Source: an uncultured Dehalococcoidia bacterium (lineage in GTDB: Bacteria; Chloroflexota; Dehalococcoidia; Lucifugimonadales; Lucifugimonadaceae). Taken from it: a stretch of DNA of 64,000 bases. Each line of letters starts with the position of its first letter. Position 1 is the stretch's first letter. The translations under genes and the position numbers were made by a program. The notes under the pieces are model-generated. The model worked only from the letters and a program-made list of their open reading frames with translations, ran no database searches and was not told where the DNA came from. Positions 28,808 to 63,213 of the stretch are shown piece by piece. The stretch covers positions 911-64,910 of the forward strand of contig CAJXEJ010000007.1 in the NCBI GenBank assembly GCA_913052475.1. The letters are read 5' to 3'.

Positions 28808-28847
28808 TTCGCGTCACCCTTAATTGATGAGCGATTAGTTCGGTTGA

Positions 28848-31800
28848 TCAACTTTCACCCATCCTCATGATTCGGTGTATCGACATTCGGTATACGGAAA
28901 TCAGGATTGCGCCGATCACACCAAGGAATACTAACCCTAAAAGTCCGAACGTAATCCCAAATCCAAACCAATCTATTTGAACAGCCATTGGAGGAACGAC
29001 TACTACGTTCTCTCCTGAATTCGCCAGATACGGCATGATCGCTGTGCCCATTTGGGCACCCATGTAGATGCCAAGCGCAACGGCGACTCCGATGACCATC
29101 ACCTGTTCCAAAACAACGAGGAACAGCAATTGTTTCATCGAAAGGCCGATGGTTCGGAGCAGAGCCAGTTCGGCACGACGCCCGTCGAACGTCACCTTGG
29201 CGTGAACGAGGAAACCGACCGCGCTTACGACTAGAACAGTGAAGAAGGCGATTCCCAGCAAGGCTCGCCAACCCGCAGATACAAGCGGGTCGAAAGCGAC
29301 ACTTGCCAGTTCCTGCGATCGGTCGGTTGTATTTGCACCGGGACGCAAACGGAGCGACGCCAGTTCTCGGCTGATATCGGGAACAGCCCTGTCGCCAGCG
29401 ATCACTGACTCGAGAATTCCTTCTTCGGCGACGAGGAGTTCGGAACCCTGAAGTGTGGATATCCAGAATTCGGTTGGTTGGATATTTCCGACTGTTCGGG
29501 TGATGTTGAGCCGTTCGTGGACGGCTCCAATATCGGCAAGTAGGAAAGATTCGTCATCGAGCGCCAGTGTCGGGAAGTATTCAACTACGTCGCGTATAGA
29601 AATATTAACGGGCGTGCCGTCCATCGCTATTTGCATGATCTTGCCATCTTCACCGCCGTAGCGTTCGACAAACGTAGTGCTTGCGATCACAGGCACTACT
29701 TCAAGTTCAGATCCATGGGCGAGACCGCGGTATTCGTTAGGTCCAGACCGAGTCCACCTCATGCGTGCGATTCCATCGAGCGGTTGGCCGTCCGGTGTTG
29801 AAGCGGGACCGAGATGGTCGCCAAGTGCCTCTCTCGTGGGTGCCATTGTTCGCCAGTTGTCGACCGAATCGAACGTTTCGATGATGATGAGTTCTGTTGC
29901 TTCTTTATTCAGCACCGCGACGTCGTCGATATCAAGTGCCGCCGGGCTGAGACCGTTTTCATAGTCGATCACACCGAGCGAGTGGAGACGGTTCGGCTCT
30001 TTGGGAAGAAGACCTGGAACCCCCCGGAAGTTGGTTGCCTGAATTGCTGCCCCAATCCGACACCACTCCGTGGGTTCGCCCTCGATTGGTAATGGGCAAT
30101 TGAATCGGAACTGGTCGGTAGCCAGTGGATTGAGATTGCCAAGCGGAACTGAGAAAAAATGGCCATTGTCGTCGGAAAGCCTCGCTACAAGGTACGTCGA
30201 TGACTGTCGCACGAGCGGGTGAACTCTGGCGGTTAGCCAGCGACCCTCGGCAGGAAGCTCGATTCCAGCGGCACCACCTACGTCAAGAACTGACGCTTTG
30301 TTTGCGAATGGTGTTAGCCCAAAATCGTCGCGGAACCATCCGACATCCTCAATTGTGTCTAGATCGACTCCAATGAACTGGAATCCTTCGACATTGATGC
30401 CCGCAGTAATATTGGCTGCATAGCGATAGATCGGTGAAGCTGCTTCAACATCTTCAAGCTCTGAAAGGTTGTCGACAACTGAGAACGATAATCCGCCTTC
30501 ACGAACGTTTACCGACGTCAGTTTTATATCGGCACCAGTGCGGTAGTACGCCTGATCGATCGCACTTTGTTCCAGCGTTGCACCGAAGCTGGCAGCGAAC
30601 ACGCCAAGGGCGGCGGTGAGGATCAGCAGGAGTGATAGTCGAGAGTGGTGGGCCGGGTTTCGAGCCATCTGCCAGATGCCGAGAATCAATGCCGGTGGCG
30701 TGACTGAAGACATTGGTCTGCGCGAGAGGACTCGTCCTATCAAATCCATTCCAACCGGGAAGATACGCAGTAGAACTAGACCGGCAGCAACCACGAATAT
30801 CGCAGGTACGCCAAGAATAAGTTGGTTGACCGTCGTTTCGCCGAAAATGCTGACCGCGACGAACGAGCCCTGCTTGGTGAGTTGCCAGAACAGGAACATA
30901 ACAAGGCCTAAGAACCCGAGGTCGAGATAGTAGCGCTGGATCACGGCCAATCGTACGGGCCTTGCTCGCGTCACGCGACTTGCCAGTAACCCCAGTCGTG
31001 TGGCTCGAAGTGCCGGAATGAACAGTGCGAGCAGCCCCAATAGACCACCGAAGAACGCCATGCGGAAGGCACCGATTGTCAGTTGCACCGGGAGCGGGTC
31101 GCCCGAGTTAAGTTCGCTGTAGAGGGGTAATACGCCGATGAATCCAACGCCGAACATAGCGAGGAACGGTCCTGATATTGCTGCGACAGTTGCCAGAAGC
31201 GCTGATTCGATGATGAAAACCGCCAGAATCTGACGTGAGGTAGCCCCACGAGTCCTGAGCAAGCCAACTTCACTACGTTGTGCGTCGACTAGGAGCGATG
31301 CCAGGGTTACGACGTAATAGAGGACGACGAGAACAATCAGTATCAACACGATAAACATCGGGAGTCGGTTGAAGAATAGATCGGTTTCGAAGGCGCTCAG
31401 TACCTGCGGAAGATCAGATCGTAACAGGAAGCCATCGACAATCGCTTTTAATTCGCGTTCGGTGGCATCAATCGTGTTTCGAATCGCTTCGGTTTCAGAT
31501 GCGGCAATTCGGGTCGGATCAACGTCGAGCCACCATGCGTAGTCCGTGCCCATGTTCGGAAAATAAGGCCCTAGCCCTTCGAGAATAGTCTTTTCCAGAA
31601 CTACAAATCGTGCGAACTGGAGCGTGTCGGTACGAGATCCAAATGCTTCGTTCTGGATGCGCCAGTGAGCCAGTTCAGGATCGACGCGTTCGTAGAGACC
31701 TGTAACCAGAATATTTACGCTGGTGTGTTCGTCTTCCCAGTGCGGTCGTGCCGGGTAGAGGTCGCCAACGCTGATGTCCATCATTTCAGCCGACTGGACA

Positions 31801-32354
31801 TCGAGAATTCCTTCGATCTGCAGTGAGCCGTCCGGACCAATGCCGTAAACCTCCCGGGCCATGGTTCCCTCGACGATTTCAACCCGATTTTCGAAATCGG
31901 GGAGCGTCATCATCGTTACTCGACGGCAGTCGCATTCGATTAGTACTTCGTTGTCACCCGAGTTGATGCCGACGTTTGATCGGCATGGACATTCGCCTGG
32001 TGAAACCTTTGCAGGTGGCAAATCAACGAAGAATGTCCAAGTTTTAAGCGCAAACTCTCGTTGGTCGAGAAACGGCTGGAACCTTTTGACGATCGTGCCG
32101 TTCATTGCATCGACGATCGTTGCGTGGGTTTCTGGGCTTGTCGGCACCTGACCCGCTTCGACCAGTACATCAACGTCGGATGGTTCGTGAGTTGCGAGAG
32201 CACGCTGGAGTGCGACATCTCGCAGGGCGTCGAAGAAAATAACCGAACTCGCCATGACCGTCGAAGCGAGCATGACACCCACCACAACTGCAGACAGCAG
32301 TCGCCAGTGCGCAAGTGTTCGCTTGACTATGAGTTGCAGTGAATTACTGATCAT
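28848..32354 (-). CDS. Giant FtsX-family ABC permease (about 10 TM, two large extracytoplasmic domains)
   Basis: 1168 aa. Hydrophobic clusters are arranged 1 + 3, then 3, then 3, with ~300 and ~470 aa soluble inserts (BceB/YbbP-like topology). Overlaps the upstream permease by ATGA. Confidence 0.8.
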   Translation of the reverse strand: MISNSLQLIVKRTLAHWRLLSAVVVGVMLASTVMASSVIFFDALRDVALQRALATHEPSDVDVLVEAGQVPTSPETHATIVDAMNGTIVKRFQPFLDQREFALKTWTFFVDLPPAKVSPGECPCRSNVGINSGDNEVLIECDCRRVTMMTLPDFENRVEIVEGTMAREVYGIGPDGSLQIEGILDVQSAEMMDISVGDLYPARPHWEDEHTSVNILVTGLYERVDPELAHWRIQNEAFGSRTDTLQFARFVVLEKTILEGLGPYFPNMGTDYAWWLDVDPTRIAASETEAIRNTIDATERELKAIVDGFLLRSDLPQVLSAFETDLFFNRLPMFIVLILIVLVVLYYVVTLASLLVDAQRSEVGLLRTRGATSRQILAVFIIESALLATVAAISGPFLAMFGVGFIGVLPLYSELNSGDPLPVQLTIGAFRMAFFGGLLGLLALFIPALRATRLGLLASRVTRARPVRLAVIQRYYLDLGFLGLVMFLFWQLTKQGSFVAVSIFGETTVNQLILGVPAIFVVAAGLVLLRIFPVGMDLIGRVLSRRPMSSVTPPALILGIWQMARNPAHHSRLSLLLILTAALGVFAASFGATLEQSAIDQAYYRTGADIKLTSVNVREGGLSFSVVDNLSELEDVEAASPIYRYAANITAGINVEGFQFIGVDLDTIEDVGWFRDDFGLTPFANKASVLDVGGAAGIELPAEGRWLTARVHPLVRQSSTYLVARLSDDNGHFFSVPLGNLNPLATDQFRFNCPLPIEGEPTEWCRIGAAIQATNFRGVPGLLPKEPNRLHSLGVIDYENGLSPAALDIDDVAVLNKEATELIIIETFDSVDNWRTMAPTREALGDHLGPASTPDGQPLDGIARMRWTRSGPNEYRGLAHGSELEVVPVIASTTFVERYGGEDGKIMQIAMDGTPVNISIRDVVEYFPTLALDDESFLLADIGAVHERLNITRTVGNIQPTEFWISTLQGSELLVAEEGILESVIAGDRAVPDISRELASLRLRPGANTTDRSQELASVAFDPLVSAGWRALLGIAFFTVLVVSAVGFLVHAKVTFDGRRAELALLRTIGLSMKQLLFLVVLEQVMVIGVAVALGIYMGAQMGTAIMPYLANSGENVVVVPPMAVQIDWFGFGITFGLLGLVFLGVIGAILISVYRMSIHRIMRMGES

Positions 32355-35300
32355 ATCGAGGCCGCAGAGAACCCTTCGCGGGCCATCTCCGCAATTTGAA
32401 TTTCATGTAGTGAGCGGACGGAGTTGACTACGCCTGCGAGGGCAATTGTGAATATCGCAGCGATTGTAACCACAGGCAGCATCCAGTTGGTCTGCAAAAT
32501 GAACGGCGGAAGCAGGTGCGCGCCCGTGTCGGTATACGCCATCGAACCGACCATCAGTGAACTCACGGCGAATCCCGTGCCCAATCCGACTACTGCCCCG
32601 ACAAATATCGCTGGAAAAAGTTCTGCAACCGTACTCAACCATTGATCGCGCGTGCTGGCTCCAAGTGCGAGTTTGAGAGCGACATCGCCCTTAGTTCGCA
32701 ATGCGAATGCAGCCATGAACACGGCATATGCCATCAGTACGACCAGCCCCGCAACTATCGTCGCCACAATGCTCATTCCGCGCCAACCTGCTACTGCGAT
32801 TGGATCGATGAAAGTGCTAACGATTCGTTCAGCTCTCAAATCGATTCGAGCCAATCTGAACACTTTTCGAACTTGTTGTCCGATTTCTTCGTTTGGAAAA
32901 TCCGTCGGTTCAAGACTGGCAAAAAGTTCGTTCGGAACGGTTTTTCTGTGACCTCTGAGTTCGATGAAGTCTATTAGGGCGTCCACATCGGTGACGGCAA
33001 ACGGCCCGCGTTCGGGATCAAGCGTTGGGAAGTAAATGACCGTGCCGATCACTTCGACAGGGACCAACCCTCCTAGCACATTGATCACGAATGGGCGGTG
33101 CAGGCCGACACCGGTTTGCGACATGAAGGCCTCGCTAGCGATTATCGGAATCGGACGATCAACGGCCTGGCGGTAGATGCCTCGGATTCCCTGACTGGAA
33201 CCTCTGCCGAGTGAGACGCTTCCTACACCGTTGCCGGCATCGTTCGCAATGTAGCCAGAGATGCCATCGGGCTCGGGGGCTATCGTAAACCCAGTGTCTT
33301 CACCTTCTGCTGTGGGAAGGCCTTTCCACAGTTCGGGAACGTCGAAATCGATCACCAGATGTCTGGCTCCATCGGCTGTGGTAACAACGAGGTCATCGAC
33401 CAGCAGCGTCGAAAGTGGGGCACTGTCGGGCCCGACAGTCATGAAGGTTTGAATTGAGGTTATCCGCACCGGTTGCGGAAACGCCCCAAGGTGCCCTGTG
33501 GCGTTGTACCAGCCTTCTTCAAACTGCCCCAAATTGATCGTGTGAGGTTCTCCGAGTCCGTCTTTTAGCACTACCCAGAGCTCGAGCATGGGGGTGACAG
33601 GTTGTACGTTGACCCACATCGAAAGATCGATCGAATCAGGTGGCAATTCAATAGGTTCAGGCAGCACTCGGACTGCGAGCCGGTCGACGAGTTGATCGAT
33701 CGTCGCACGAGAATTGGAAAAGTCGTCTCGGAACCATGCGACCTGCTGGAAATCTATCGGGTCGATCGAAAGAAGATTGAATTGCGATCCTGTTGAGGTT
33801 GTGCCAACAGTGGCTACGGTTCGTAATGCTGGAGTCACAACGTCGATGGTTTCCAGATCACGGACTTTTTCTAGTTGCTCATGTGCGACCTGACCGGTTG
33901 TTCCAATTGTCGTGACATGAATATCGGCTCCAGTGCTGTAGAGGACCTGCTCGTTGGTTGACCGTTCAAGGGTGGATACAACCGACCCGGCAACAACACC
34001 TGTACTGATCGATAGAATTATCGCCAGCATTGGCCAGCCGTGGAAAAACGGTCGTCGCGCTACGCTTGCGAGCCCAAGCCCCAAACCCAATGAATTCGAT
34101 TTCAACCCAATTTCAGCGAGAAATCGGGTGATGATCGGAAACAGGCGCAATGCCACCAACGAACTCGCCATCACGATTAGCACCGGAGCCGCCAGCAGGC
34201 TGAAATCGGGTGAAAAATCTCCCCCTCGTTCGAGAACTACAATTGCATTTCTTGCACCAACCTCCCACCAGACGATAGCGCTTAGAGCGACCAGCAAGGC
34301 ATCGATGTAGTAGCGCTGGAACCAGAGAGCGCTGACTGGCCGAGCGTCGGAGGATCGAGAGGCTGCCAGCGTTGCCTCATCCCAGAATGAAGACGCCGCA
34401 GTAACGACCAGTATCGTTCCGATTGCCCCGCCAAACGACCATATCCAGATGGTTGGGTATAACTCGACGGGCATAGTGCTGCCGTTGGTTATGGAGTTGT
34501 ACGCAGGCAGGTAGCCGATAACGGCGATGACTAGTGTCGAGACGAGTGGAGCAACTATTGCTGCAGGAATTGAGACTATCGCGGCTCCTATCGCGTGGAT
34601 TCCCAACTGCTGCTTTACGTTGAAGCCCCGACTTCGAAGCATCATGTAACCGTTGATCCGCTTTCTGCCGAGCAGTCCTGCGGCCATCGTGAGATAGAAA
34701 GCGACGCATGCGAGCGTGAGTAGCGTCATGAGCAGTAATGGGATGCTGCCGAAAAGCGCTCGCTGCTTCATTGTTTCGACACGAGGGATCAGTTCGGTAA
34801 TCACGAAGGGACGGGCGACCGTGTTTTCGAGTTGATCGGCGAGATCGTCGAACGTTGTTTCCAACTCAGCAATCGACATGTCAGCAAGAAGTGTTTGATC
34901 GATGAAGAAGAACCAGTCGTACGATGCAGGGAGCCCGGCGTTGGCTTCGGCGACCAGCGTGAACATTGAATTGCTCGTTGGGAGCATGATTAAGGGCTGT
35001 TCACGCCCCTCAATTGAGGGTGAAAGATAGGCTTCGCCAAGTTCCATCCAGAACCGTTCGCCTAGATCGGTCGGTGTGAAGGTTCCAGTCACAATAGCCC
35101 GAACCAATCCCGTGCCACCGTCGACCGATTGTGAATCGATAACGTCGCCTATCGAAATACGGAGATGTTTCGCACGGTCGTGCTCAATCGCAACCTCAAT
35201 AGCGGGTTTGCCATCGACATTGGTTACGGAGTCGGTAGGGGCAATCCCCTCGATGTATTCGACGTGATCGTCGATGTTTTCAATGTACTGGAACGAGCTC

Positions 35301-35620
35301 TGCGACGCCAATGAATCGGTCCTGAGGCCCGTCTCTAGCCATCCCCACCAGTGGATGCGGCTTTTTACGAGCCGTCCTGAACCTTCTACGAGTTCACCAA
35401 GATGAGTATCGATTGCTGAGAAAACCGACTCGTCTGTGAGTTGGCGATCTTCGTCGGCTAGCGGAACCCAGGAAGTGTTGATGTGAACACTCGAATTGAT
35501 CGGGCCGATCTCCTCGACCACTGCTCGCATTGAAACGATTTCAAGCGACCGACGATACTGAGGAATTCCCGATGCAGTCGTTGTTGCAAAGAGAGCACCG
35601 ACTATCAGTCCGGCGATCAT
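32351..35620 (-). CDS. Giant FtsX-family ABC permease, paralogue of 28848..32354
   Basis: 1089 aa with the same topology. The frame stays open upstream to 35735 and encodes ...NLNLLRLIKTRASSDPW before the first ATG, so the true start may be non-canonical. Confidence 0.8.
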   Translation of the reverse strand: MIAGLIVGALFATTTASGIPQYRRSLEIVSMRAVVEEIGPINSSVHINTSWVPLADEDRQLTDESVFSAIDTHLGELVEGSGRLVKSRIHWWGWLETGLRTDSLASQSSFQYIENIDDHVEYIEGIAPTDSVTNVDGKPAIEVAIEHDRAKHLRISIGDVIDSQSVDGGTGLVRAIVTGTFTPTDLGERFWMELGEAYLSPSIEGREQPLIMLPTSNSMFTLVAEANAGLPASYDWFFFIDQTLLADMSIAELETTFDDLADQLENTVARPFVITELIPRVETMKQRALFGSIPLLLMTLLTLACVAFYLTMAAGLLGRKRINGYMMLRSRGFNVKQQLGIHAIGAAIVSIPAAIVAPLVSTLVIAVIGYLPAYNSITNGSTMPVELYPTIWIWSFGGAIGTILVVTAASSFWDEATLAASRSSDARPVSALWFQRYYIDALLVALSAIVWWEVGARNAIVVLERGGDFSPDFSLLAAPVLIVMASSLVALRLFPIITRFLAEIGLKSNSLGLGLGLASVARRPFFHGWPMLAIILSISTGVVAGSVVSTLERSTNEQVLYSTGADIHVTTIGTTGQVAHEQLEKVRDLETIDVVTPALRTVATVGTTSTGSQFNLLSIDPIDFQQVAWFRDDFSNSRATIDQLVDRLAVRVLPEPIELPPDSIDLSMWVNVQPVTPMLELWVVLKDGLGEPHTINLGQFEEGWYNATGHLGAFPQPVRITSIQTFMTVGPDSAPLSTLLVDDLVVTTADGARHLVIDFDVPELWKGLPTAEGEDTGFTIAPEPDGISGYIANDAGNGVGSVSLGRGSSQGIRGIYRQAVDRPIPIIASEAFMSQTGVGLHRPFVINVLGGLVPVEVIGTVIYFPTLDPERGPFAVTDVDALIDFIELRGHRKTVPNELFASLEPTDFPNEEIGQQVRKVFRLARIDLRAERIVSTFIDPIAVAGWRGMSIVATIVAGLVVLMAYAVFMAAFALRTKGDVALKLALGASTRDQWLSTVAELFPAIFVGAVVGLGTGFAVSSLMVGSMAYTDTGAHLLPPFILQTNWMLPVVTIAAIFTIALAGVVNSVRSLHEIQIAEMAREGFSAASI

Positions 35621-38390: not shown

Positions 38391-39289
38391 AGGGTTTGTC
38401 TCAAGAGTTATAGAACTCGTGTCAGTATATTTTGACTGAGTGAGAGCATTCTCGCTCGCATTTGTTCTACATCCCGACTCCTGCGGAGGGATCTTTGGTG
38501 GTTGGATTGGTGAGGTGATGTGAGCGATGCTCGGTATTGACTGAGTCGTGGTTAGCGTTGCGTCAACCGCTGATTGTCACGTTGTTCGTACCTCACTCCT
38601 CGAATGACGGAAAAAGCCGGCGCCATGTAAGACAGCACGACACGTTGCCGTGTAGATAATCTGGGCGTGCATTTTGTTTCGTGACAAGTGTATTCAGCGT
38701 TCGATACTGGGGTGTGTCACGCTTTATTTTCACCAGTAACAGCCAGCAAGCAGTATATGCCCGGACTACCAAGAACCTGGATAGATCGACGAAGACGCAA
38801 GCTGCGTCGTGCTCAGCGCGAGGCGTTATCGAGAATTGGTCTGGCGACTGCGGGTTCTCCTGCTGCTGGCGAAACAACCATGTGCATCGCCTACATGTGC
38901 CCGTGGGCGCACGCTTGCAACTCCGCTGCCCCTCGACCTGCCCTAGTCGCCCAGCGAGACTGCGCCCGCAAGTTCCCTGAGGTGAACCGACCAGATTCCG
39001 GGTTGTCCGATTCAGCGCTGGATAATCTTGCGCAGCAGCGCGTGAACGGAATCAGGCTTGAAAGTGTGACCGTTGGTATATTGGACGAATTGCGCCCCGA
39101 TGGCCCAAGTCCGTCGATGGGCAAGAAGCGACCGGCGCTACCGGTTTCCGGTACTGGTGTACGAGGAAGGGCTTTAGCACCTCGCAAGAAAGATATCGCC
39201 AGACTCCGAAAGCTTTCCAAAGTCAGCAGATCGAGCAAGATGAGAAGGCTCAGTATGGGCGGTGGCCGTTCATAGCGCGGCGCGCGTTG

Positions 39290-40085
39290 TTAAGAACTCG
39301 AACAACACTTTTGATATGCGTCAGGATCGACCAGGTTCAGATCGTCGTGGTCGCCACCCTGAGGATGTGCATTTGCTTCGGCTTTGGCGCTGCTTCGAAT
39401 ATCCGATGTGTGTTCTCGACCGAAACAGTCTGGTATGAGTTCCCATGCAGTATCAGAGTCGGTACTAAACGTGTACTGACGTGTTTCGTCGTTTCGAGTT
39501 TCGAGCGCATGATGAGATATCTAGGCAGAAATCTCGTCAGCGGTACTTGCTCATGCATCGCGTATCTCAATGACGAAATCGCAGCTTCAAGCACGAGTGC
39601 TGTTCGGCTTACATCTTTGGCGAGATGTGCCGCTACTGCTCCACACATTGATCGCCCAAACACCACGATTTTCTTGCCTGGGTGGAGTTTACGGTTGAGT
39701 TCGTACGTCGCAGTAGCGTCGAGGTACATACCTTCTTCCGGCGGCTCACCCTCGGGACGACCGTATCCTCGATAGTCGATAGCGATGATGGATGGCGAGT
39801 ATTGACGGTGGGTTTTATGATTTTGGTCTAGTCGGACACTGATATTTCCTCCGTGCCGTGGAAAATCAGCTAGACGACGTCGGAAGTATCCGGCATGTGC
39901 CAGCCGTGGAGTTTCGTGTTCTTATTTTCGCTGGAACTGTTGCTCAGCCGAGCGATAGGGAAGATATCGTCGTATTCAAGACCAACGTGTTCTGGCGTTC
40001 CGCGAAACGAGTGCTCCGGGAAGAACAAAGCCTTGTGTTCAAGCCATGTGAGAGGGTGGAGAAGTTGCCGGAGACCATATGACAT
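39290..40085 (-). pseudogene. Bem46/ABHD13-like alpha/beta hydrolase with one in-frame TAG and two frameshifts
   Basis: The segments read ...LFFPEHSFRGTPEHVGLEYDDIF...KLHGWHMPDTSDVV*LIFHG / GGNISVRLD...AIDYRGYGRPEGEPPEEGMYLDA...KIVVFGRSMCGAVAA...PTLILHG...KQMHILR / GGDHDDLNLVDPDAYQKCCSSS*. The TAG is at 39870-39872 and the shifts are near 39853 and 39358. Confidence 0.55.
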
Positions 40086-49393: not shown

Positions 49394-49921
49394 TTGTCAG
49401 AATCGAAAACACAGCGACCGGATTGGGACGACTACATCATGTCGATCGCGGTGGGTGTTCGCGCACGTGCGAACTGCCTGGGCAGCCAAATCGGATCGGT
49501 ACTGGCGCGGGATGGTCACATCCTCTCGACCGGGTACAACGGCACGCCGCACAACACACCGAACTGTGATGAAGGAGGTTGTGCCCGCTGTTCGAATCGC
49601 GACGAATACCCGTCGGGGACAGGGTACGACCTGTGCATATGTGTACATGCCGAGCAAAACGCTTTGTTGCAAGCGGCTCGATTTGGTATTGCCGTTGAAG
49701 GATCGATTCTTTACACGACGTGGCGACCCTGCTTCGGATGTACCAAAGAGATACTCCAGGCTGGTGTAGCGGGCGTTCGGTACGGCGAGAACTGGGAGCC
49801 GAACCCAGATCTGAAAGACGAGTACGAACGGCTCCAAAGTTACTTCCCGGGAGGAATAGAAAAAGTCGATCTTCCCGAAGGTGCTGATTCCCACACCCGT
49901 GGAATCAAAGCTCAGTCATGA
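49394..49921 (+). CDS. dCMP (deoxycytidylate) deaminase family protein
   Basis: HAEQNAL and PCFGCTKEI zinc motifs. TTG start. Confidence 0.85.
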   Translation: MSESKTQRPDWDDYIMSIAVGVRARANCLGSQIGSVLARDGHILSTGYNGTPHNTPNCDEGGCARCSNRDEYPSGTGYDLCICVHAEQNALLQAARFGIAVEGSILYTTWRPCFGCTKEILQAGVAGVRYGENWEPNPDLKDEYERLQSYFPGGIEKVDLPEGADSHTRGIKAQS

Positions 49922-51120
49922 AAATCACCAGTGTCGAAACTATAGCGCTCCGAGATGACGCCGATGGGACAGTAACCTCGTGGAATCCTTCGTTTGCGGA
50001 ATCTGATAGTGATCCCGCCAGCATGGGCGGATACGACATAACGCTTGTTCGTGTTGATACCGATGAAGGGATAAGTGGTATCGGACAGGTCGAGGCACCG
50101 AGTCTGGTAATTGACGCGATCGTTCGTTCGACCCAGGGTCTCGAAGTGCTGCTGATCGGCGAGGATCCCACCCAAGTTCAACGTCTGTGGCAAAAGATGT
50201 ACAACTCGACCGGTGTGTTCAATCGCCGAGGAGTTGGGATTGGTGCAATTGGTGCGGTCGAGACGGCTCTTTGGGACATTACGGGCAAGGCAGGAGGTAA
50301 GCCTGTACACGAGCTGATCTGGCGATCGTTTACTACAACAGCGAGCCACACTGAACCACTAAAACGAGTCACTCCATACGCCACGGTCTACCCGCCGGGA
50401 GCGAGTTTGGATGAGCTGGAAGAACGGGTGGGCATCGCTATTTCACGCGGGCTGAAGGCAGTCAAGATCGAAGAGTGGCCGGGTCAATTCGGCAACGTCG
50501 ATGTTGAGACCGATGTAGCAGTTATAGAGAAGGCTCGTTCGGTGATTGGCCCGAAGCGCGACCTAATGATCGACGTGCAAAATCGTTGGCGTGACGTTGG
50601 CCAAGCACTTCGAACAATCGAGGCGATCGAGCAGTTCAATCCGTACTTCATCGAAGCGCCGCTTCCAGCCGACAATATCGAGGGATATCGAAAGCTCGTG
50701 GAGTCGACGAACGTAAGAATTGCCGTGGGCGATTGGGGCTTCAGCACTCGTCATGAGTTTGCTGATTTGCTTCGACGGGGTCGGCTCGACGTCGTTCAGC
50801 CGAGCGCAGTTCGAGCCGGCGGGATGCACGAAATCTTGAACATCGCCGAAGACGCCTATCAGTTCGGCGCGCTATGCATTCCGCACACGTGGTGTAATAC
50901 TGTTGGCGTTGCCGCGCAATTGCATCTTGCGGCGGTTACGCCAAATATGCCCTACTTCGAATCCCCGATAGCGTTCCCGGCTACCCCACTCGTCGAAAAC
51001 TTGCTGCTGCCGAACTTCGAAGTCGCGCCCGATGGAACGATGGAAGTTCCGAATCGGCCTGGGTTGGGATTTGAGCTGAACGAAGATGTTGTATCTGAGT
51101 TCCGAGTTGATCCCTACTAG
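49918..51120 (+). CDS. Enolase-superfamily (MR/MLE) enzyme
   Basis: VRVDTDEGISGIGQ capping motif. ATGA overlap with the deaminase gene. Confidence 0.85.
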   Translation: MKITSVETIALRDDADGTVTSWNPSFAESDSDPASMGGYDITLVRVDTDEGISGIGQVEAPSLVIDAIVRSTQGLEVLLIGEDPTQVQRLWQKMYNSTGVFNRRGVGIGAIGAVETALWDITGKAGGKPVHELIWRSFTTTASHTEPLKRVTPYATVYPPGASLDELEERVGIAISRGLKAVKIEEWPGQFGNVDVETDVAVIEKARSVIGPKRDLMIDVQNRWRDVGQALRTIEAIEQFNPYFIEAPLPADNIEGYRKLVESTNVRIAVGDWGFSTRHEFADLLRRGRLDVVQPSAVRAGGMHEILNIAEDAYQFGALCIPHTWCNTVGVAAQLHLAAVTPNMPYFESPIAFPATPLVENLLLPNFEVAPDGTMEVPNRPGLGFELNEDVVSEFRVDPY

Positions 51121-51146: not shown

Positions 51147-51776
51147 TTGATGCGATCGAAAGACCAACCAAGATCAAACAAGGATGACCACGAGTTCCTA
51201 GCCCGTCATCCCGGCCTTGCTGGGCTCACGTATGGAGAAGGCGATACCAGCTTTCGAGGACGGGTAAGAAAGCATCTTCGAAATCCGCCGATGCGAACAG
51301 TATTACTGATCTTGTTCGTCATTGTGGCAATACCAGCCGTACTCGTCTATCCACAAGTTTCTGGCGTTGCCGAAGACAATTGGAGCGACGTTCAGCGAGC
51401 CCGTGAACGTCACTTTGTGAACGTTACGGCAGCCAGCTGGATCTACCCGTTTTTGCGAAGACAGGCCGAGCGGATGCAACAGGCCGATGTGCCGGTCGAA
51501 TGGCGGGGAGTTTCGTTCAAGAATGGCCCCTGTTTTCCGGAGCACATGACGCAATTGCCAACCGGGAAGTACGCCTATGCGATCGAGACTGCATGTACGA
51601 GTCTGGATGAAATTCAGATGAGGTACGCGCCCGATTGTGCGCAAACATCGGCTTGCAATATTCCAGAGCAAGCGGTGGTCGAACTTCAGATCGTGCTGGA
51701 CCGTCTCAAAGTGGCGTTTTCTGATGCAAACTTGGTGCAGCATTCGACTGACGATCAGGGGCAGATGCGGGACTGA
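51147..51776 (+). CDS. Single-pass membrane protein, paralogue 1 of an unrecognised Cys4 ectodomain family
   Basis: RKHLRNPPMRTV + TM helix + PVEWRGVSFKNGPC-x20-C-TSLDEIQMRY-x3-C-x5-CNIP. Confidence 0.6.
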   Translation: MMRSKDQPRSNKDDHEFLARHPGLAGLTYGEGDTSFRGRVRKHLRNPPMRTVLLILFVIVAIPAVLVYPQVSGVAEDNWSDVQRARERHFVNVTAASWIYPFLRRQAERMQQADVPVEWRGVSFKNGPCFPEHMTQLPTGKYAYAIETACTSLDEIQMRYAPDCAQTSACNIPEQAVVELQIVLDRLKVAFSDANLVQHSTDDQGQMRD

Positions 51777-51933
51777 TTATTGTTATCTAATTGCCTGAAA
51801 TCCGATGCATTTGGAAGGTATACGGGCGTAGCATGAATGGTTGATTTCCAAGGACAAGATTGATCACCAAGGCAATCGTTAAGCCGATATCAAGGCTGAA
51901 CCCAGAAAGCAATACAACCAGCAGCACGCTGTC

Positions 51934-52503
51934 ATGGATCTTTCGTTCGACAACGACATCTCACGTCTCGCCAGATTCCGGCGAGAACTCCGCAACCCCT
52001 CGATGTGGACGATTTTCATCATCGTCACGGTTGCCGCAGTGGTCGTTTTTGCACCGTTCGCCCATGGTTGGGTCGAGACGGCTCGCAGCAGTTTCAAGTC
52101 GGTGGCAAGGCAGAAGGAAATTCAGGACAAGAGCATGATCTCGCTCGGTGCGATCGTTCCAAGCCAGATCGCTCCGTGGATGGGGCAGCAGGTCAACACA
52201 ATGATCCGAGCTGAAGGACCGGTCGAATGGCGAGTGGTGTCGTTCCGTGCCGGACCATGTGACACAGGGAATCTTTCTCAGCTACCTGCGAGCAAGTATT
52301 CGACATCAATTGCGACCGCGTGTAACGATCTCGACAGCATTCAGCAGCGGTATTCGGGATCTTGCTTCCTTGCTTCAGACTGCAACGTTCCGGAAGTTGC
52401 CAAGAACGAGTTGAAGGCGGCTATGGGATTGGTTTGGGAAGCATTCTCCGACGCAGGATTTGTTCTGCCCTACGACGAACTTGAACAGCAAGTTTATCCG
52501 TAG
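51934..52503 (+). CDS. Single-pass membrane protein, paralogue 2 of the Cys4 ectodomain family
   Basis: RRELRNPSMWTI + TM helix + PVEWRVVSFRAGPC-x20-C-NDLDSIQQRY-x3-C-x5-CNVP. Confidence 0.65.
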   Translation: MDLSFDNDISRLARFRRELRNPSMWTIFIIVTVAAVVVFAPFAHGWVETARSSFKSVARQKEIQDKSMISLGAIVPSQIAPWMGQQVNTMIRAEGPVEWRVVSFRAGPCDTGNLSQLPASKYSTSIATACNDLDSIQQRYSGSCFLASDCNVPEVAKNELKAAMGLVWEAFSDAGFVLPYDELEQQVYP

Positions 52504-52631
52504 GTAGCACTTTGCCTTACGACATTGTTGTCGTTCTACTTTACACTGTCCTGCGAGATCATTATCACCACCAGTCCACGATGCGCATGTCTTTTGGAAA
52601 TAGCTATATCACGGCGTGAGGGCAACTGACC

Positions 52632-53162
52632 ATGACGTTCGAGTATGAAGAAGATAATTCGCTGTCGGAGCGCATTCGAAGGGAACTTCGCAATCCTTCG
52701 ATGCGGACGATCTTTATCTCTATTGTTGTTGTAATCGCTGTGGTTTCAGCTCCATTTGCGCCAGGTTGGATCAGCTCGACGAAATCGGGAATCAACGAGG
52801 TTACGGCTGATCACGACTTGCAAACTTCATCGAGACTTCCGAACGATGACCTCACTGACGAGCAGATCTCGCCGTACCTCATCGAGAAAGCCGAGACGAT
52901 GCGAGATGCCACAGGGCCGTTCCAGTGGGAGATCGTCAACTTCCGTTTTGGTCCCTGTGATCCCGATGCGCTTGCTGCGCATTCGGACGGTGCTTTCCGC
53001 ACGGCACTTACCGATTCGTGTACTTCGCTCGCCGACATTCAGGGTCGCTACCAGCGTGATTGCTACATAGCTGCGTCATGCAACGTTTCTGATGAGGCCA
53101 AAAATGGGCTGAATGCCGTTATCGCGGTTCTCCAGAAGGCACAGATCAACGCCGGGTATTAG
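52632..53162 (+). CDS. Single-pass membrane protein, paralogue 3 of the Cys4 ectodomain family
   Basis: RRELRNPSMRTI + TM helix + PFQWEIVNFRFGPC-x20-C-TSLADIQGRY-x3-C-x5-CNVS. Confidence 0.65.
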   Translation: MTFEYEEDNSLSERIRRELRNPSMRTIFISIVVVIAVVSAPFAPGWISSTKSGINEVTADHDLQTSSRLPNDDLTDEQISPYLIEKAETMRDATGPFQWEIVNFRFGPCDPDALAAHSDGAFRTALTDSCTSLADIQGRYQRDCYIAASCNVSDEAKNGLNAVIAVLQKAQINAGY

Positions 53163-53505
53163 CCAGCGGTCTTTGCCAAACCAAGGCAACAACGTCAAAC
53201 CTGCGCGCCAGTCGGGATGTCACTACAATTTGTGGCAGTCGTGCAGCGATTCGGTCGGCGATTGATTCTGAGACTGGTTGTGGGTGTGTAGAAAACCATG
53301 TGAGTGTCTCTCGAATTGCATCATCGCGGCTGATTACGTGCTCATCATAGACTGCTGTGAAATTTTCTTCGTTTTTGAACTTGTGAGCTAGGCATGATTG
53401 CCAAATCGACCTGCAGATACGGCCACTGCTAGACTGCCGTCGAATTAGCGTTTTGAAGTTATACGAATATGGTTTCGTCAACTCAGTGAGGATGTTCTTC
53501 AACAC

Positions 53506-55423: not shown

Positions 55424-55984
55424 TTAACTCCAAAAAACCAACAAATCTCGGATTGCTTCGAGTGCTTCGAAGAATGTGAAACTATCGAGATATTGTCCGC
55501 CGTGTAGGACCCATTCTTGCCCTAGCTTGAGAACGAGAATGACAAGGAACCATTTCACGATTCGTTCTCGGGTTATCTCGTAGTTTGGCCAGTAGTGCTT
55601 TCGGATCGCAACGAAAACGAACCAGAATTCAAAAACGTTCGGGAATGCGAGGAGAATTGGTCGAGCCTGAGTGAATTCGAACGTTGTGAATCCGATCATG
55701 CGGAAGGCGAACAGGCCAAGTGCGATTTTTCGATCTGGACCATCCCATTTGTTAGCGACCCACAGGAACGTGAGCATGTAGACCAGGTCGGCCCACTTAT
55801 CGAACGCTTGATAGTTTCTGAGACCACCGAGTTCGAGTGCTTCTTGAAGGAATAGGTCAGAGAAATCGACGACGATCGCGATCAAAGCACCCGCGAACGC
55901 CCATCGCAGCACGGGTAGTGAACCCACTACTCGGATGAGTCCTATGACGAGTTGTTCGAGAGTCATTTGTTTTCTTGAGGACAC
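55424..55984 (-). CDS. Hypothetical polytopic membrane protein
   Basis: 186 aa with 5-6 hydrophobic segments. No motif recognised. Confidence 0.6.
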   Translation of the reverse strand: MSSRKQMTLEQLVIGLIRVVGSLPVLRWAFAGALIAIVVDFSDLFLQEALELGGLRNYQAFDKWADLVYMLTFLWVANKWDGPDRKIALGLFAFRMIGFTTFEFTQARPILLAFPNVFEFWFVFVAIRKHYWPNYEITRERIVKWFLVILVLKLGQEWVLHGGQYLDSFTFFEALEAIRDLLVFWS

Positions 55985-57052: not shown

Positions 57053-57656
57053 TTTTATGCGAAACGTCCACATCAGAGACAGCTGAATGACGGAAAACAG
57101 TTCGGTTTCATTACCGCCCCACGAGCTCCTAGTCGAAAGTTATTTCGCCGTTGCCGTGGGTTATCGGATCACCTAGAACGGTCGTGTTACGCACGATCAT
57201 CTGTGTCGGGGTGTATTTTCAGCGGTGGAAAAGGCGTAGCTATTTCTTCGAAAATGTTCTCCTGCTCGGGCTCGGTTGTGGCTGCGGGAGCGACCGTGGA
57301 GTGATTGGAATACTAGTAAGGATGGCATTCGAAGTGGCGGTTGGCTCGATCGTGGCTGCTGTCGGTTTTGGAAGTGCTTGTGCGCTTGTTAAACCAGACA
57401 GATCGTCATCGGCACCGACTGTGTCAGCCGCGCTGGAGGACGGAATATCTTCGATAGAAGGCGTATCGGCAGATGAGCAGGAAGTTACGAATTCAGTGAG
57501 GAGAGTTGCGAGTGCGACGAGTGTGACATCTTTTGTCTTGATCATCACCTCATCACGAAACTTAGTTCTGCATCCGGCATCCGTGATTCCACATATTGGC
57601 ACGAGCCGTCATATTCGATGTTGGTGAGCCCGACAAGTCTGTAGAGTATTGACCTC

Positions 57657-59350: not shown

Positions 59351-60391
59351 ATGTACGTAGGAACTCAGGTAGGTGCACGAAACGACTCGGATTTTGAACA
59401 GTGGGCACAACTGGGAGTCGTAAATATCTGCTCCGATCCGTCGGGCGATCCTCACAAGTGGACGCGCGAAGATCTGGCTCGCCATAAGGAGAAAGTCAAC
59501 TCCTACGGCATCGAGCTCGACATGGTGCAGATTCCGCTTTCTTCAACACCGCTTGATCAATCACAGTCACCAAACATCATGCTCGGCAAGAGTCCGGAGC
59601 GAGATCGCGAGATCGAGTCTATCCAGAACATCATTCGAATGTGTGGTGAAGTTGGAATTCCGGCGGTCAAGTACAACATGAACATTATCGGCATACCGCG
59701 TTCCGAGCGAGAAGAGGGTCGTGGCGGTTCGTCGAACTCTACATTTCGTTGGGCTAAGATGAATCAGGACGATCCGACAACGATCGCTGGGGTTGTTGGT
59801 GTCGACGAAAACTGGGAGCGAATCGACTACTTCCTCGAACGGGCAGTCCCGGCTGCTGAATCGGCGAAAGTTAGACTCGCCTGTCACCCGCACGATCCTT
59901 ACACACCAGATGGTTACATGGGCGTGACTCGAGTGCTCGGGACGATTGATGGGATGAAGAAATTCGTGCAGATGCATGAAAGTCCGTACCACGGCCTTAA
60001 CTTTTGCCAGGGCACGGTTACTGAGATGCTCGATGATCCGGGTGAAGAAATCGCTGACGTGATCCGCTGGTTCGGTTCGAGAGAGAAAATCTTCAACGTG
60101 CACTTCCGCAACATTCGCGGTCACAAACTAGACTTCATGGAGTCTTTCCCCGACGAAGGTTCGATCGACTTCTCGGAGATCATCAAGATCTACAAGGAGG
60201 TTGGGTACAAATACATGCTGATGCCCGACCACGTTCCGTGGATCAGCGGTGATGACCCGCAGGGTGCGGCGTTTGCGTTCTGCTACGGCTATATTTCAGC
60301 GCTGCTGCAAACGGTCAAAGAGCCTCGGAAGCAGCCATGGGTAACCAAGGAACCGGGTCAACACAAGACGGCGGCATGGCAGGCGAACTGA
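59351..60391 (+). CDS. uxuA: UxuA-type D-mannonate dehydratase (xylose-isomerase-like TIM barrel)
   Basis: VRLACHPHDP, NFCQGT, FNVHFRNIRG and MPDHVP parallel the E. coli UxuA landmarks (VRMAVHPDDP, FTHLR, RPDHG). Confidence 0.8.
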   Translation: MYVGTQVGARNDSDFEQWAQLGVVNICSDPSGDPHKWTREDLARHKEKVNSYGIELDMVQIPLSSTPLDQSQSPNIMLGKSPERDREIESIQNIIRMCGEVGIPAVKYNMNIIGIPRSEREEGRGGSSNSTFRWAKMNQDDPTTIAGVVGVDENWERIDYFLERAVPAAESAKVRLACHPHDPYTPDGYMGVTRVLGTIDGMKKFVQMHESPYHGLNFCQGTVTEMLDDPGEEIADVIRWFGSREKIFNVHFRNIRGHKLDFMESFPDEGSIDFSEIIKIYKEVGYKYMLMPDHVPWISGDDPQGAAFAFCYGYISALLQTVKEPRKQPWVTKEPGQHKTAAWQAN

Positions 60392-61914: not shown

Positions 61915-63213
61915 TCACGGCTTGACCATTGAACCGTCGGCTCGGCGGACAGTGTCCCAGGCTCCCCCAAATTCACGCTCTTTGAACGGGAATTTGGCCG
62001 CCAAGTCTTCATCGATATCTATACCGAGACCCGGCTCGCCGTTCGACCACATCATGCCGTCTTTCAGCGTTGGCGTACCCGGGAACATCTCGCGTGTTCG
62101 TTCCGAAGGAATGTTGGCTTCTTGGATACCAAAATTATAGGTGTTCAGGTTCAGCATCATGTTCGCAGCGTGACCCACAGGCGAAGTATCACCAGGACCG
62201 TGCCAGGCAGTTCGAACATTATAAAGTTCACCCATTGCTGCGATCTTACGGGCAGGCGTGATGCCACCGATCTGAGACATGTGAATTCGGATGAAGTCCA
62301 TCAATCGATTCTCAATCATTGGAATTACTTCGTGGGGGCTGTTGTGCAGCTCGCCCATGGCGATTGGAGTAGCGCACTGCTCGCGAACCATTTTGAAGTA
62401 GGCCTGATCCTCTGGGCTGAACAAATCTTCGAGGAAGAACAACTGGTACTTCTCGACCTCTTTGGCGAACCAAACACCGAGAATCGGTGGAATGCGTTCG
62501 TGAACGTCGTGAAGAATTTCCAATCCATATCCGAAGCGATTTCGAATGTACTCGAATAGTCCTAATGCTGATCGCATGTACGGCTTGGGTTCATAGACGC
62601 CACCCGGGTGCGCGTAGAGTTTGTCTTTGGCGTATTCACGCAGCCAATCTGTGTTGGCAATAGGCCCTTCGAGCGTGTTCTGGTTACTTGCCGTGCCGGT
62701 GCCGGTCGCTGCGCCTCTATTGCCGTAGGTTGCGTAGCCGGGAGTCGACATCTGTACTCGGATGTGGTGGAAGCCTTGCTCCACGAACTCCTGCACCTTG
62801 TCGCCGACTTCTTCGTGCGATTCGCCCGAGGTGTGAACGTAAACAGGAGCTGCTACACGCGCTCGACCGCCAAGCAAATCGTAAACCGGCATGCCGGCCA
62901 TCTTGCCCTTGATGTCCCAGAGTGCCTGGTCGACGCCAGATAGTGCGTTGTTGAGCACGGGACCGTTGCGCCAGTAGGACGAAACGTACGATGACTGCCA
63001 GATGTCCTCGATATCGGCAACGTTACGCCCGATCAGGAAGGGTTTCAGGTAGTCGTCAACGGCCGCTGCGACGGCGGTGGGTCTCTGGGTAAAGGTTGCG
63101 CAGCCGACGCCGTGAAGGCCGGGTTCTGAAGTTTCGATCTTGACGATTACAAGCCGGATTTGATCCGGCTCGGTGAGAATTGTCTTGATATCTCGAATCG
63201 TTACATTGCTCAT
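61915..63213 (-). CDS. Enolase-superfamily ManD/RspA-like D-mannonate dehydratase subgroup
   Basis: IRDIKTILTEPDQIRLVIVKIETSEPGLHGVGCATFTQRP...ALWDIKGK. 432 aa. Confidence 0.85.
   Translation of the reverse strand: MSNVTIRDIKTILTEPDQIRLVIVKIETSEPGLHGVGCATFTQRPTAVAAAVDDYLKPFLIGRNVADIEDIWQSSYVSSYWRNGPVLNNALSGVDQALWDIKGKMAGMPVYDLLGGRARVAAPVYVHTSGESHEEVGDKVQEFVEQGFHHIRVQMSTPGYATYGNRGAATGTGTASNQNTLEGPIANTDWLREYAKDKLYAHPGGVYEPKPYMRSALGLFEYIRNRFGYGLEILHDVHERIPPILGVWFAKEVEKYQLFFLEDLFSPEDQAYFKMVREQCATPIAMGELHNSPHEVIPMIENRLMDFIRIHMSQIGGITPARKIAAMGELYNVRTAWHGPGDTSPVGHAANMMLNLNTYNFGIQEANIPSERTREMFPGTPTLKDGMMWSNGEPGLGIDIDEDLAAKFPFKEREFGGAWDTVRRADGSMVKP

Follow-up and report, generated by a model that had tools for sequence, protein, structure and literature searches.

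The window analysed here, a stretch of 64,000 nucleotides from an uncultured Dehalococcoidia bacterium, contains three tandem genes on the + strand, separated by spacers of 157 nt (A–B) and 128 nt (B–C) and encoding the proteins called here paralogues A, B and C (Table 1). The first-pass annotation had described them as diverged paralogues sharing a tail motif, one transmembrane (TM) helix and an ectodomain with four identically spaced cysteines, a description that the comparison of the three products sustains. Their pairwise BLASTP E values (7e-35 for A–B, 3e-43 for B–C and 2e-24 for A–C) and a three-way alignment with 32–41% identity and 40 invariant columns, which include L-R-N-P-x-M-x-T, P..W..V.F..GPC and all four cysteines, mark them as clear paralogues, with a similarity far above chance. 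All three share the predicted cytoplasmic motif R-(R/K)-(E/H)-L-R-N-P-(S/P)-M-x-T, a single strongly hydrophobic window of 19 residues (Kyte-Doolittle mean 2.4–2.7, next best window at most 1.1), and exactly four cysteines in an ectodomain with the spacing C-x20-C-x13-C-x5-C. The proposed ectodomain pattern is reproduced exactly in the three copies, and the spacing recurs in 157 of the 166 unique family members. The start of copy A had been placed at the TTG of its longest open reading frame; the frame stands, but the start is probably the ATG one codon downstream, because the homologues of copy A are 208 aa long.

Table 1. Features of the locus (positions in the window; TM segments and cytoplasmic tail as predicted).
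Feature	Position	Strand	Remarks
dCMP-deaminase gene	49394–49921		overlapped over 4 nt by the MR_MLE gene
Enolase-superfamily (MR_MLE) gene	49918–51120	+	invariant upstream neighbour of the family
Paralogue A	51150–51776	+	208 aa from the probable start; longest ORF, from TTG 51147, 209 aa
A, motif RKHLRNPPMRT	51267–51299		cytoplasmic tail of about 47 aa
A, TM segment	around 51291–51347
A, Cys codons	51531, 51594, 51636, 51654
Conserved intergenic block ATACGGGCGTAGCAT	51820–51834	+	upstream of paralogue B; from A–B spacer alignment of 9 genomes
Paralogue B	51934–52503	+	189 aa
B, motif RRELRNPSMWT	51979–52011
B, TM segment	around 52003–52059
B, Cys codons	52258, 52321, 52363, 52381
Paralogue C	52632–53162	+	176 aa
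C, motif RRELRNPSMRT	52677–52709
C, TM segment	around 52710–52766
C, Cys codons	52956, 53019, 53061, 53079
NAD-dependent epimerase relic	53146–53505	-	45% identity to the epimerase of locus L001 (BLASTP); no Pfam match by itself

The MR_MLE gene ends only 29 nt before the ATG of paralogue A (about 3–40 nt across loci) and is probably co-transcribed with it. The family lies directly downstream of this same gene, on the same strand, in 24 of 24 GTDB species loci and in all other loci that retain the upstream flank, and the neighbour is kept also in single-copy genomes, where it is only 67–70% identical. The whole block of 10–15 kb, TrpB–dCMP deaminase–MR_MLE–family–GGT–AKR–FGGY, is syntenic, so the adjacency mostly reflects synteny, in line with the earlier statement that the flanking genes give no obvious functional link. 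The epimerase relic marks the site at which relatives carry a Peptidase_M10 gene and an epimerase gene between the family and GGT. This M10 metalloprotease, adjacent to copy B in those relatives, was discarded as a partner or fusion, as it has its own signal peptide, lacks the family domain and occurs in a subset of genomes, and GGT was discarded as an extracytoplasmic partner, having no signal peptide in any clade checked. No second conserved membrane or envelope gene was found in the gene context of the family, nor a second conserved neighbour of its distant lipoprotein-type relatives, whose contexts are unrelated (glycine reductase, metallo-beta-lactamase fold, PhyH). Within the A–B spacer, the block ATACGGGCGTAGCAT is unique in the window, and its 12-nt core CGGGCGTAGCAT is found a single time in each locus, invariably on the upstream side of the clade-B gene (see below), even in L014, a locus without clade A; in genomes lacking clade A the gap before B is about 200 nt. 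This distribution makes ATACGGGCGTAGCAT a candidate for a promoter or operator private to B. Promoter, terminator and Rfam scans of the locus gave nothing above chance, and no sigma-70-like promoter was found.

The proteins had not been recognised at first reading, and the profile-HMM and structure searches leave them so, with no confident match to a characterised domain family and nothing above threshold in Pfam, NCBIfam, PHROGs, PADLOC, PDB profile or Foldseek searches. No Pfam or NCBIfam entry reached its gathering cut-off, the best being Macin (13.8 bits, cut-off 27), followed by Herpes_US9 (12.6 bits, cut-off 23.7) and RirA (11.6, cut-off 193), and among 92 aligned members scanned with Pfam no entry was matched by more than five, none of them at E < 0.015. 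Single proteins had no PHROGs match, PADLOC returned only HEC-01B (E 0.029, 12 bits, below threshold), and tblastn against 50,697 phage records gave no match. The family profile reached at best E 0.03 among PDB sequences, over the TM segment only, with PilA-N and KwaA as matches, while Foldseek with two AlphaFold2 (AF2) models (full-length and ectodomain-only against the PDB, full-length also against BFVD) gave nothing significant (best E 0.2–0.26, the BFVD best being 0.26 for the full-length model). An exhaustive HMM search of 1.84 billion representative proteins (1.84e9) recovered 62 clusters, which makes the family very small. Judged by these searches, it is a previously undescribed and genuinely new DUF-type family. 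All named members belong to SAR202, Dehalococcoidia or Chloroflexota, including the cultured Ca. Lucifugimonas marina, as do 24 of 24 GTDB species matches; outside SAR202 group I (Dehalococcoidia, Chloroflexota) the family is essentially absent. Two proteins with long HMM matches in several stretches, P0144 and P0156, are repeat proteins, and were dropped as domain fusions.

Orthologues occur in dozens of genomes, that of a cultured isolate among them, and on hundreds of contigs from metagenomes. A tree built with 56 copies, drawn from about 27 genomes, places the sequences in clades A, B and C, which correspond to gene positions 1, 2 and 3 across species and are old paralogue clades fixed by position. 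The triplet had been read as an old triplication kept under selection, and both halves of that claim hold, the first by the position-matched clades and the second by dN/dS values of 0.08–0.32 in all clades with unsaturated dS; the third copy, on the other hand, is not universal, as genomes carry one to three copies (A+B+C, A+B, B+C or a single copy). Clade B is found in every multi-copy genome and clade C in nine sampled species; clade C is the most divergent and lacks the QLPxGKY loop, and each of the three clades carries its own conserved blocks. The three ORFs are genuine genes under purifying selection. Identity with their counterparts in other genomes is 66–72% for clade A, 62–68% for clade B and 46–49% for clade C, while MR_MLE and GGT are 83–89% identical in the same genome pairs, which indicates that its neighbours change far more slowly than the family, whose pace would be typical of exposed, non-enzymatic proteins.

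The N-terminal motif is nearly invariant over 126 unique sequences (N 100%, P 99%, R 96%). The strongest conservation in the family lies on the predicted cytoplasmic side, in LRNPSM, which a purely external docking role leaves unexplained. The motif was not found outside the family genes in a local search of 551 kb, and a profile built from the N-terminus only returned just a truncated clade-A fragment, missing known members. The charge bias (+2.9 before the TM segment, -0.2 after it) points to an N-in/C-out topology, for which we infer an uncleaved N-terminal signal anchor. No lipobox of the form L-(A/S/T)-(G/A)-C is present in A, B or C, which have no cysteine before the ectodomain, and the segment does not match the Tat consensus S/T-R-R-x-F-L-K: the invariant residues are R-N-P and not an R-R pair (R 89%, R 69%, with RK in clade A and RQ in distant members), and the h-region is strongly hydrophobic, versus the moderate hydrophobicity expected of Tat substrates. 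Only in four rare, distant members (P0127, P0138, P0140 and P0143) are the motif and TM segment replaced by a lipobox-like signal (LTAC, FAC, SGC, SAC; for example L-T-A-C-T), which supports an extracytoplasmic location. The extracytoplasmic four-cysteine module suggested earlier agrees with this replacement, with the charge bias and with the monoderm envelope of the host clade, SAR202 group I (PMC10444878).

The ectodomain is predicted with confidence to be of an all-helical fold class. In the full-length AF2 model of paralogue B, TM segment and stalk form one continuous helix (residues 24 to 69), followed by a confident helical head without strands, and the ectodomain-only model of the same protein reaches a pLDDT of 86.9 and a pTM of 0.79. 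Exactly four cysteines are present in 147 of the 166 members, the C2–C3 spacing being fixed at 13 and the C3–C4 loop varying from 4 to 8 residues, and neither CxxC nor any other recognised redox or metal motif occurs in the family. The 20/13/5 spacing with its variable last loop fits structural staples, and the four cysteines most likely form two disulfides. No catalytic-type conserved residues were found in the head, and therefore a non-enzymatic binding or docking module is its most likely nature.

Taken together, these features are consistent with helical-bundle proteins that are locked by disulfides, fixed N-in/C-out by a signal anchor and exposed on the outside of the membrane, where they would bind or dock without catalysing a reaction; to this reading we give about an even chance. 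Each protein would be small and bitopic, its N-terminal signal anchor left uncleaved: a basic cytoplasmic tail closes with the near-invariant L-R-N-P-(S/P)-M-x-T, and the single TM helix runs on into an amphipathic stalk, which carries the all-helical head, compact and about 100 residues long, outside the cytoplasmic membrane of the monoderm cell. A C1–C2 disulfide would pin the long W..F..GPC loop onto the central helix, and a C3–C4 disulfide would close a short inter-helix loop. The head would serve as an accessory subunit or a kind of receptor, in contact with a ligand or with some other protein of the envelope or membrane. A, B and C would stem from an ancient tandem duplication at one fixed locus, after which each would have gained conserved surfaces of its own; since these surfaces are clade-specific, the three would be non-redundant. 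They may assemble as a hetero-oligomer, and as a homo-oligomer in single-copy genomes.

The hydrophobic segment might instead be a long Sec signal peptide of the monoderm type, cleaved to release small, soluble, secreted, disulfide-bonded helical proteins. The layout resembles the n-h-c order of such signals, with a basic n-region, about 17–19 hydrophobic residues, a proline conserved at 92% and then, in many members of clades B, C and D, small residues before W (A-x-G/S), and the distant relatives use a cleavable signal of the lipoprotein type. When cleavage by SPase I was judged by eye with the -3/-1 rule, A-x-G or V-x-S was seen before W in many members, but several orthologues have K, N or T at the would-be -1 position and clade A has V-S-(G/S/N/K); moreover, the n-region is unusually long (24–47 aa) and highly conserved, and AF2 continues the TM helix into the stalk. 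Cleavage is rather unlikely, and so are the products that it would imply, such as binding proteins outside the cell or factors for signalling or antagonism. A different kind of processing would apply if the proteins were type IV pilin- or archaellin-like subunits of a surface filament, with a class III signal cut by the prepilin peptidase of the FlaK/PibD type that SAR202 group I possesses. Geobacter PilA-N was indeed the top match in the PDB profile search, aligning LRN...T..LIVV...A...P, AF2 models the protein as a lollipop with an N-terminal helix of 46 residues, and Lucifugimonas genomes encode, elsewhere, an archaellum cluster and a Peptidase_A24 (FlaK) candidate (PMC10444878). The lead was nonetheless rejected after a position-by-position test, as the hydrophobic stretch is preceded in the 126 unique sequences by R-N-P-(S/P)-M-x-T, where no position carries a conserved Gly or Ala that could serve as -1, Glu is missing at +5, and none of the 17 residues of the purely hydrophobic stretch is acidic; the head is all-alpha and not an alpha-beta roll, and the match at E = 0.03 covers the TM segment only. 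Neither pilus or archaellum assembly genes nor a prepilin peptidase gene were found within 8 kb on either side of the family in any locus. A filament subunit is very improbable.

Other readings keep the anchor and assign the ectodomain a more specific task. Copy A, co-transcribed with the dCMP deaminase and MR_MLE genes, could be an extracytoplasmic accessory for sensing or uptake of the sugar-acid substrate of their pathway, in favour of which speak the short gap and the invariable upstream position of MR_MLE, which persists even where that gene has diverged in single-copy genomes. This is quite unlikely, since the adjacency may be purely historical in a block that is syntenic in its entirety, some 80 MR_MLE paralogues are present in SAR202 group I (PMC10444878) against a single family locus, a gap of about 200 nt precedes B where clade A is missing, B has its own conserved upstream element, no transporter is adjacent, and the distant members do not lie beside MR_MLE. 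Alternatively, the four cysteines could be functional rather than structural, serving at the external side of the cytoplasmic membrane either in thiol-disulfide redox sensing or relay or in binding a metal (Cu, Zn or Fe-S), for example in an accessory factor for the nearby caa3-type oxidase. All four are invariant and most members have no further cysteine, a COX1-4 operon lies 5–8 kb upstream in the window and in L001 and L007, L005 has a Caa3_CtaG gene close to the family, and one member has a weak match to COA2 (E 0.018). The spacing and the variable C3–C4 loop, without a recognised motif, argue against such a site, the proximity to COX is part of the general synteny (L004 has no COX gene up to 8 kb from the family) and the COA2 match is single and sub-threshold; both the site and the oxidase accessory appear improbable. 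Finally, the missing promoter, the long spacers and the lack of annotation anywhere would be expected of chance ORFs or decaying duplicates, a reading effectively refuted by the dN/dS values, by the wide occurrence of orthologues, also in the cultured isolate, and by the confident AF2 fold.

Beyond the signal-anchored docking module preferred here, a bolder and decidedly speculative version would make the three proteins a SAR202-specific hetero-oligomeric surface receptor or envelope complex, with the near-invariant cytoplasmic L-R-N-P-(S/P)-M-x-T as a new kind of N-terminal tag for sorting, assembly or signalling, read by a dedicated partner. If true, A, B and C would represent a module of a new class, for outside-in signalling or for organising the envelope, in a bacterial clade that is among the most abundant in the ocean. 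Cultures of SAR202 group I, which abounds in all parts of the ocean, are recent, and there is essentially no work on its cell envelope; as a clade-defining, conserved and surface-exposed set without detectable relatives, the family is a candidate lineage marker and a possible handle on monoderm envelope biology (surface recognition, interaction with phages or predators, docking of exo-enzymes), and it merits a new domain-family (DUF-type) entry. At the same time, lineage-restricted families of small uncharacterised membrane proteins are common, nothing here points to a new mechanism, and the practical value will stay modest until a partner or phenotype is known.

Among known systems, Psb27 and PsbQ/CyanoQ, small lumenal accessory proteins of photosystem II, offer a parallel in kind, being helical bundles of about 100–120 residues tethered to the extracytoplasmic membrane face as non-catalytic docking proteins, with Psb27 and CyanoQ lipid-anchored as the distant, lipobox-bearing members would be. 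Both are among the top Foldseek matches (2kmf, 9phw_Q, 7y5e), but homology is unsupported (E 0.7–2.4, TM-scores 0.27–0.46, no sequence similarity), neither has the four-cysteine pattern or the LRNPSM signal anchor, and SAR202 has no photosystem II. The four-helix-bundle (4HB) sensors (Tar/4HB_MCP and the histidine-kinase structure 4k0d) likewise have an extracytoplasmic helical bundle continuous with a TM helix and appear among the weak Foldseek matches (1wat, 1lih, 4k0d; E >= 2.5), whereas the family has one TM helix, no cytoplasmic output domain (the tail is of 20–47 aa) and no Pfam 4HB match. The resemblance to type IV pilins extends to a basic leader with L-R-N, a hydrophobic helix whose conserved Pro comes after about 22 residues, the long-helix lollipop shape and, in the pilins too, a C-terminal disulfide-bounded loop; the -1 and +5 positions and the all-alpha head set the family apart. 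MgrB, of the PhoQ system, combines a short cytoplasmic tail, one TM helix and conserved extracytoplasmic cysteines, and acts by binding a membrane protein; at about 47 aa and without a folded ectodomain, it is an analogue only, with no sequence or structural relation to the family, which has no adjacent two-component system here. A last likeness concerns OppC_N (PF12911), the N-terminal TM segment of oligopeptide ABC permeases, weakly matched by 5 of the 92 members (best E 0.015, below the gathering threshold): the family has no permease domain, and what the two share extends over about 30 residues, with a juxtamembrane basic-x-x-(R/N)-N followed by a TM segment that closes in A-P.

The three tandem genes A, B and C were described in the first-pass annotation as diverged same-strand paralogues of an unrecognised membrane protein; the finding is real and its interpretation supported, the family comprising new, clade-restricted, signal-anchored, probably disulfide-locked helical-bundle surface proteins, here as ancient tandem paralogues. 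The ORFs, with spacers of 157 and then 128 nt, encode proteins sharing 32–41% identity over a full-length three-protein alignment with 40 invariant columns, and BLASTP between the copies gives pairwise E values of 7e-35, 3e-43 and 2e-24. Each copy has a single strongly hydrophobic segment (Kyte-Doolittle mean 2.4–2.7 over 19 residues; no second candidate in A, B or C on this scale), preceded by the common motif R-(R/K)-(E/H)-L-R-N-P-(S/P)-M-x-T, and exactly four cysteines spaced C-x20-C-x13-C-x5-C, which reproduces the single TM helix, LRNP-type motif and identical Cys spacing first noted. The ORFs had been described accurately throughout, except for the start of copy A, probably the ATG at 51150 (not 51147) because copy-A orthologues are 208 aa long.

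Coordinates of the family genes, the conserved block and other features in the window and in loci of related genomes (L numbers)
Feature	Location	Position	Strand	Remark
Copy A ORF	window	51147/51150–51776	+	ORF call and orthologue length
Copy B ORF	window	51934–52503	+	ORF call
Copy C ORF	window	52632–53162	+	ORF call
Conserved intergenic block ATACGGGCGTAGCAT	window	51820–51834	+	upstream of every clade-B gene
12-nt core CGGGCGTAGCAT	L001; L007; L014; others	8674–8685; 5898–5909; 7890–7901		
Peptidase_M10	L001; L007; L013; L025	9551–10723; 6799–8001; 3482–4684; 7005–8195		
Split clade-A gene	L016	7198–7839		ORFs 7198–7473 and 7498–7839
119-aa ORF	window	53146–53505	-	long copy C–GGT spacer
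hyp186	window	55424–55984	-	186 aa
FtsX-domain proteins and ABC ATPases	window	27166–35620	-	
ORFs of 158–195 aa	window	38688–39275, 39287–39775, 57151–57627	+	
UxuA-like mannonate dehydratase	window	59351–60391	+	
Second MR_MLE paralogue	window	61915–63213	-	

The family is real but very narrow. Homologues form 97 clusters (90% identity) in a collection of 5.8 billion proteins, some on >170 contigs, with Ca. Lucifugimonas marina, a cultured isolate, and Tara Oceans data among the sources. Of 1.84 billion representatives searched exhaustively by HMM, only 62 proteins scored at E ≤ 1e-3, and at least two of these were rejected as spurious repeat proteins. All 24 family-bearing species-representative genomes are Chloroflexota, Dehalococcoidia or SAR202 MAGs, and in all 24 one and the same enolase-superfamily gene (MR_MLE) is the immediate upstream neighbour of the family, as it is in further loci with the upstream flank preserved. 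The syntenic order is TrpB(-), dCMP deaminase, MR_MLE, the family (1–3 copies), GGT, a membrane protein of 180–186 aa (-), aldo-keto reductase and FGGY kinase, with Peptidase_M10 and an epimerase(-) between family and GGT in some genomes only.

In a distance tree of 56 copies, the clades follow the order of the genes, with A, B and C in first, second and third place, and copies from single-copy genomes form a separate clade D. After correction of one missed ORF, A, B and C occur together in six species (the window, L012, L013, L016, L018 and L019), A with B in about nine, B with C in three (L014, L017, L025) and a single copy in eight, a pattern indicating that the duplications are old and that B is the constant member, whereas A or C can be lost. 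Orthologue comparisons (unsaturated dS only) give dN/dS of ~0.14 for clade A, 0.09–0.19 for B, 0.08–0.32 for C and 0.18–0.26 for the single-copy clade; these values and the position-matched clades bear out the proposed old triplication under selection. The family evolves much faster than its neighbours: its identity is 46–72%, whereas MR_MLE and GGT reach 83–89% across those same pairs of genomes. Strongly conserved blocks particular to each clade argue for non-redundant roles; examples are RERHF-VNVTAASWIYPFLR in the A stalk and the QLPxGKY loop, which A, B and D share and C lacks. Where clade A is missing (L014, L017, L025), the MR_MLE-to-B gap is ~200 nt, and 18 residues in L017 may be what is left of the A C-terminus (E 0.02). 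The split clade-A gene of L016 is aligned continuously by tblastn (68% identity) and could reflect an in-frame stop codon, a pseudogene or a misassembly.

The motif taken over 126 unique sequences is (A/G)-R-hydrophobic-R-(R/K)-(E/H)-L-R(96%)-N(100%)-P(99%)-(S/P)-M-x-T, followed by ~17 hydrophobic residues and a Pro conserved at 92%. The 22 residues ahead of the TM carry a net charge of +2.9, against -0.2 behind it, which indicates a predicted N-in/C-out orientation. A class III (pilin/archaellin-type) signal was considered because SAR202 group I genomes contain genes for archaella and a candidate prepilin peptidase (PMC10444878); the top match of the family profile among PDB sequences is Geobacter PilA-N (E 0.03). 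That match, like weak ones to OppC_N from 5 of 92 members, covers only the juxtamembrane and TM segment, and the class III reading was rejected, there being no Gly/Ala at -1, no Glu at +5 and an all-alpha head. The window proteins also differ from Tat substrates and lipoproteins, with neither a Tat signal nor a lipobox. An uncleaved signal anchor is the favoured prediction, because several orthologues have K, N or T as the would-be signal-peptidase -1 residue and the full-length AF2 model has TM and stalk as one helix (residues 24–69). Rare distant members (P0127, P0138, P0140, P0143) keep the W/F/Cys4/Q core and have lipobox-like signals in place of motif and TM, which independently places the Cys4 domain, as predicted, outside the cytoplasm; since SAR202 group I cells have a monoderm envelope (PMC10444878), the domain faces the cell surface at their single membrane.

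Run on the family alignment, AF2 confidently predicts an entirely helical head, both in the full-length model (pLDDT 85–94 across residues 80–180) and for the ectodomain only (mean pLDDT 86.9, pTM 0.79; main helices 7–22, 52–70 and 85–104, plus short ones). C1 is placed in the long loop following W..F..GPC and C2 in the central helix, with C3 and C4 on either side of a short loop ahead of the last helix; these positions, with C2–C3 spacing fixed family-wide and a C3–C4 loop of 4 to 8 residues, suggest C1–C2 and C3–C4 disulfides. The extracytoplasmic location suggested on first pass is upheld by lipobox relatives and charge bias, its two disulfides standing as a predicted pairing. No family reached threshold in Pfam, NCBIfam, PHROGs or PADLOC, and Foldseek against PDB and BFVD found only generic helical bundles (talin and vinculin, Psb27, PsbQ and sensor domains among them; E ≥ 0.2, TM-score ≤ 0.55), in keeping with the view that the family was unrecognised. 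The family-wide invariant residues (W, F, G/P, Q, four Cys) include no catalytic-type constellation. The most likely role would be non-catalytic binding or docking at the outer face of the membrane, A, B and C possibly working as a hetero-oligomer. Architecture and role taken together are an evenly balanced proposition, with high confidence in the architecture and low confidence in the role; the Cys4 proteins are novel as a family and ordinary in kind.

Copy A is probably co-transcribed with dCMP deaminase and MR_MLE, as suggested by the MR_MLE-to-A gap of 3–40 nt and the 4-nt overlap of dCMP deaminase with MR_MLE. The ATACGGGCGTAGCAT block is unique within the window, and every locus has a single copy of its core, invariably upstream of B, with or without A, which suggests a candidate promoter or operator of B's own; its distance to the B start codon varies, and it does not fit a sigma-70 consensus scan. 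Adjacency to MR_MLE is weak functional evidence, because MR_MLE paralogues number about 80 in SAR202 group I (PMC10444878) and the whole block is syntenic; this agrees with the earlier remark that the flanks offer no obvious functional link. GGT lacks a signal peptide.

In some relatives, a secreted, matrixin-like Peptidase_M10 (390–400 aa, signal peptide), unrelated to the Cys4 family, and a divergently oriented epimerase lie between family and GGT. The pair is absent from the window, where the 119-aa ORF, 45% identical to the relatives' NAD-dependent epimerase and alone without a Pfam match, looks like a relic of their deletion in this lineage. Further downstream, hyp186, a hydrophobic protein syntenic in nearly all related loci (72–82% identity) and without a Pfam match, is another uncharacterised clade-conserved membrane protein.

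Elsewhere in the window, three ORFs match no Pfam family at E ≤ 1e-5, and the two FtsX-domain proteins, both very large (1168 and 1089 aa), adjoin two ABC ATPase genes and represent an unusually large MacB/FtsX-type transporter pair. The UxuA-like gene and the second MR_MLE paralogue, which has diverged from the one at 49918 (22% identity), fit the enolase-superfamily expansion reported in SAR202 group I (PMC10444878).
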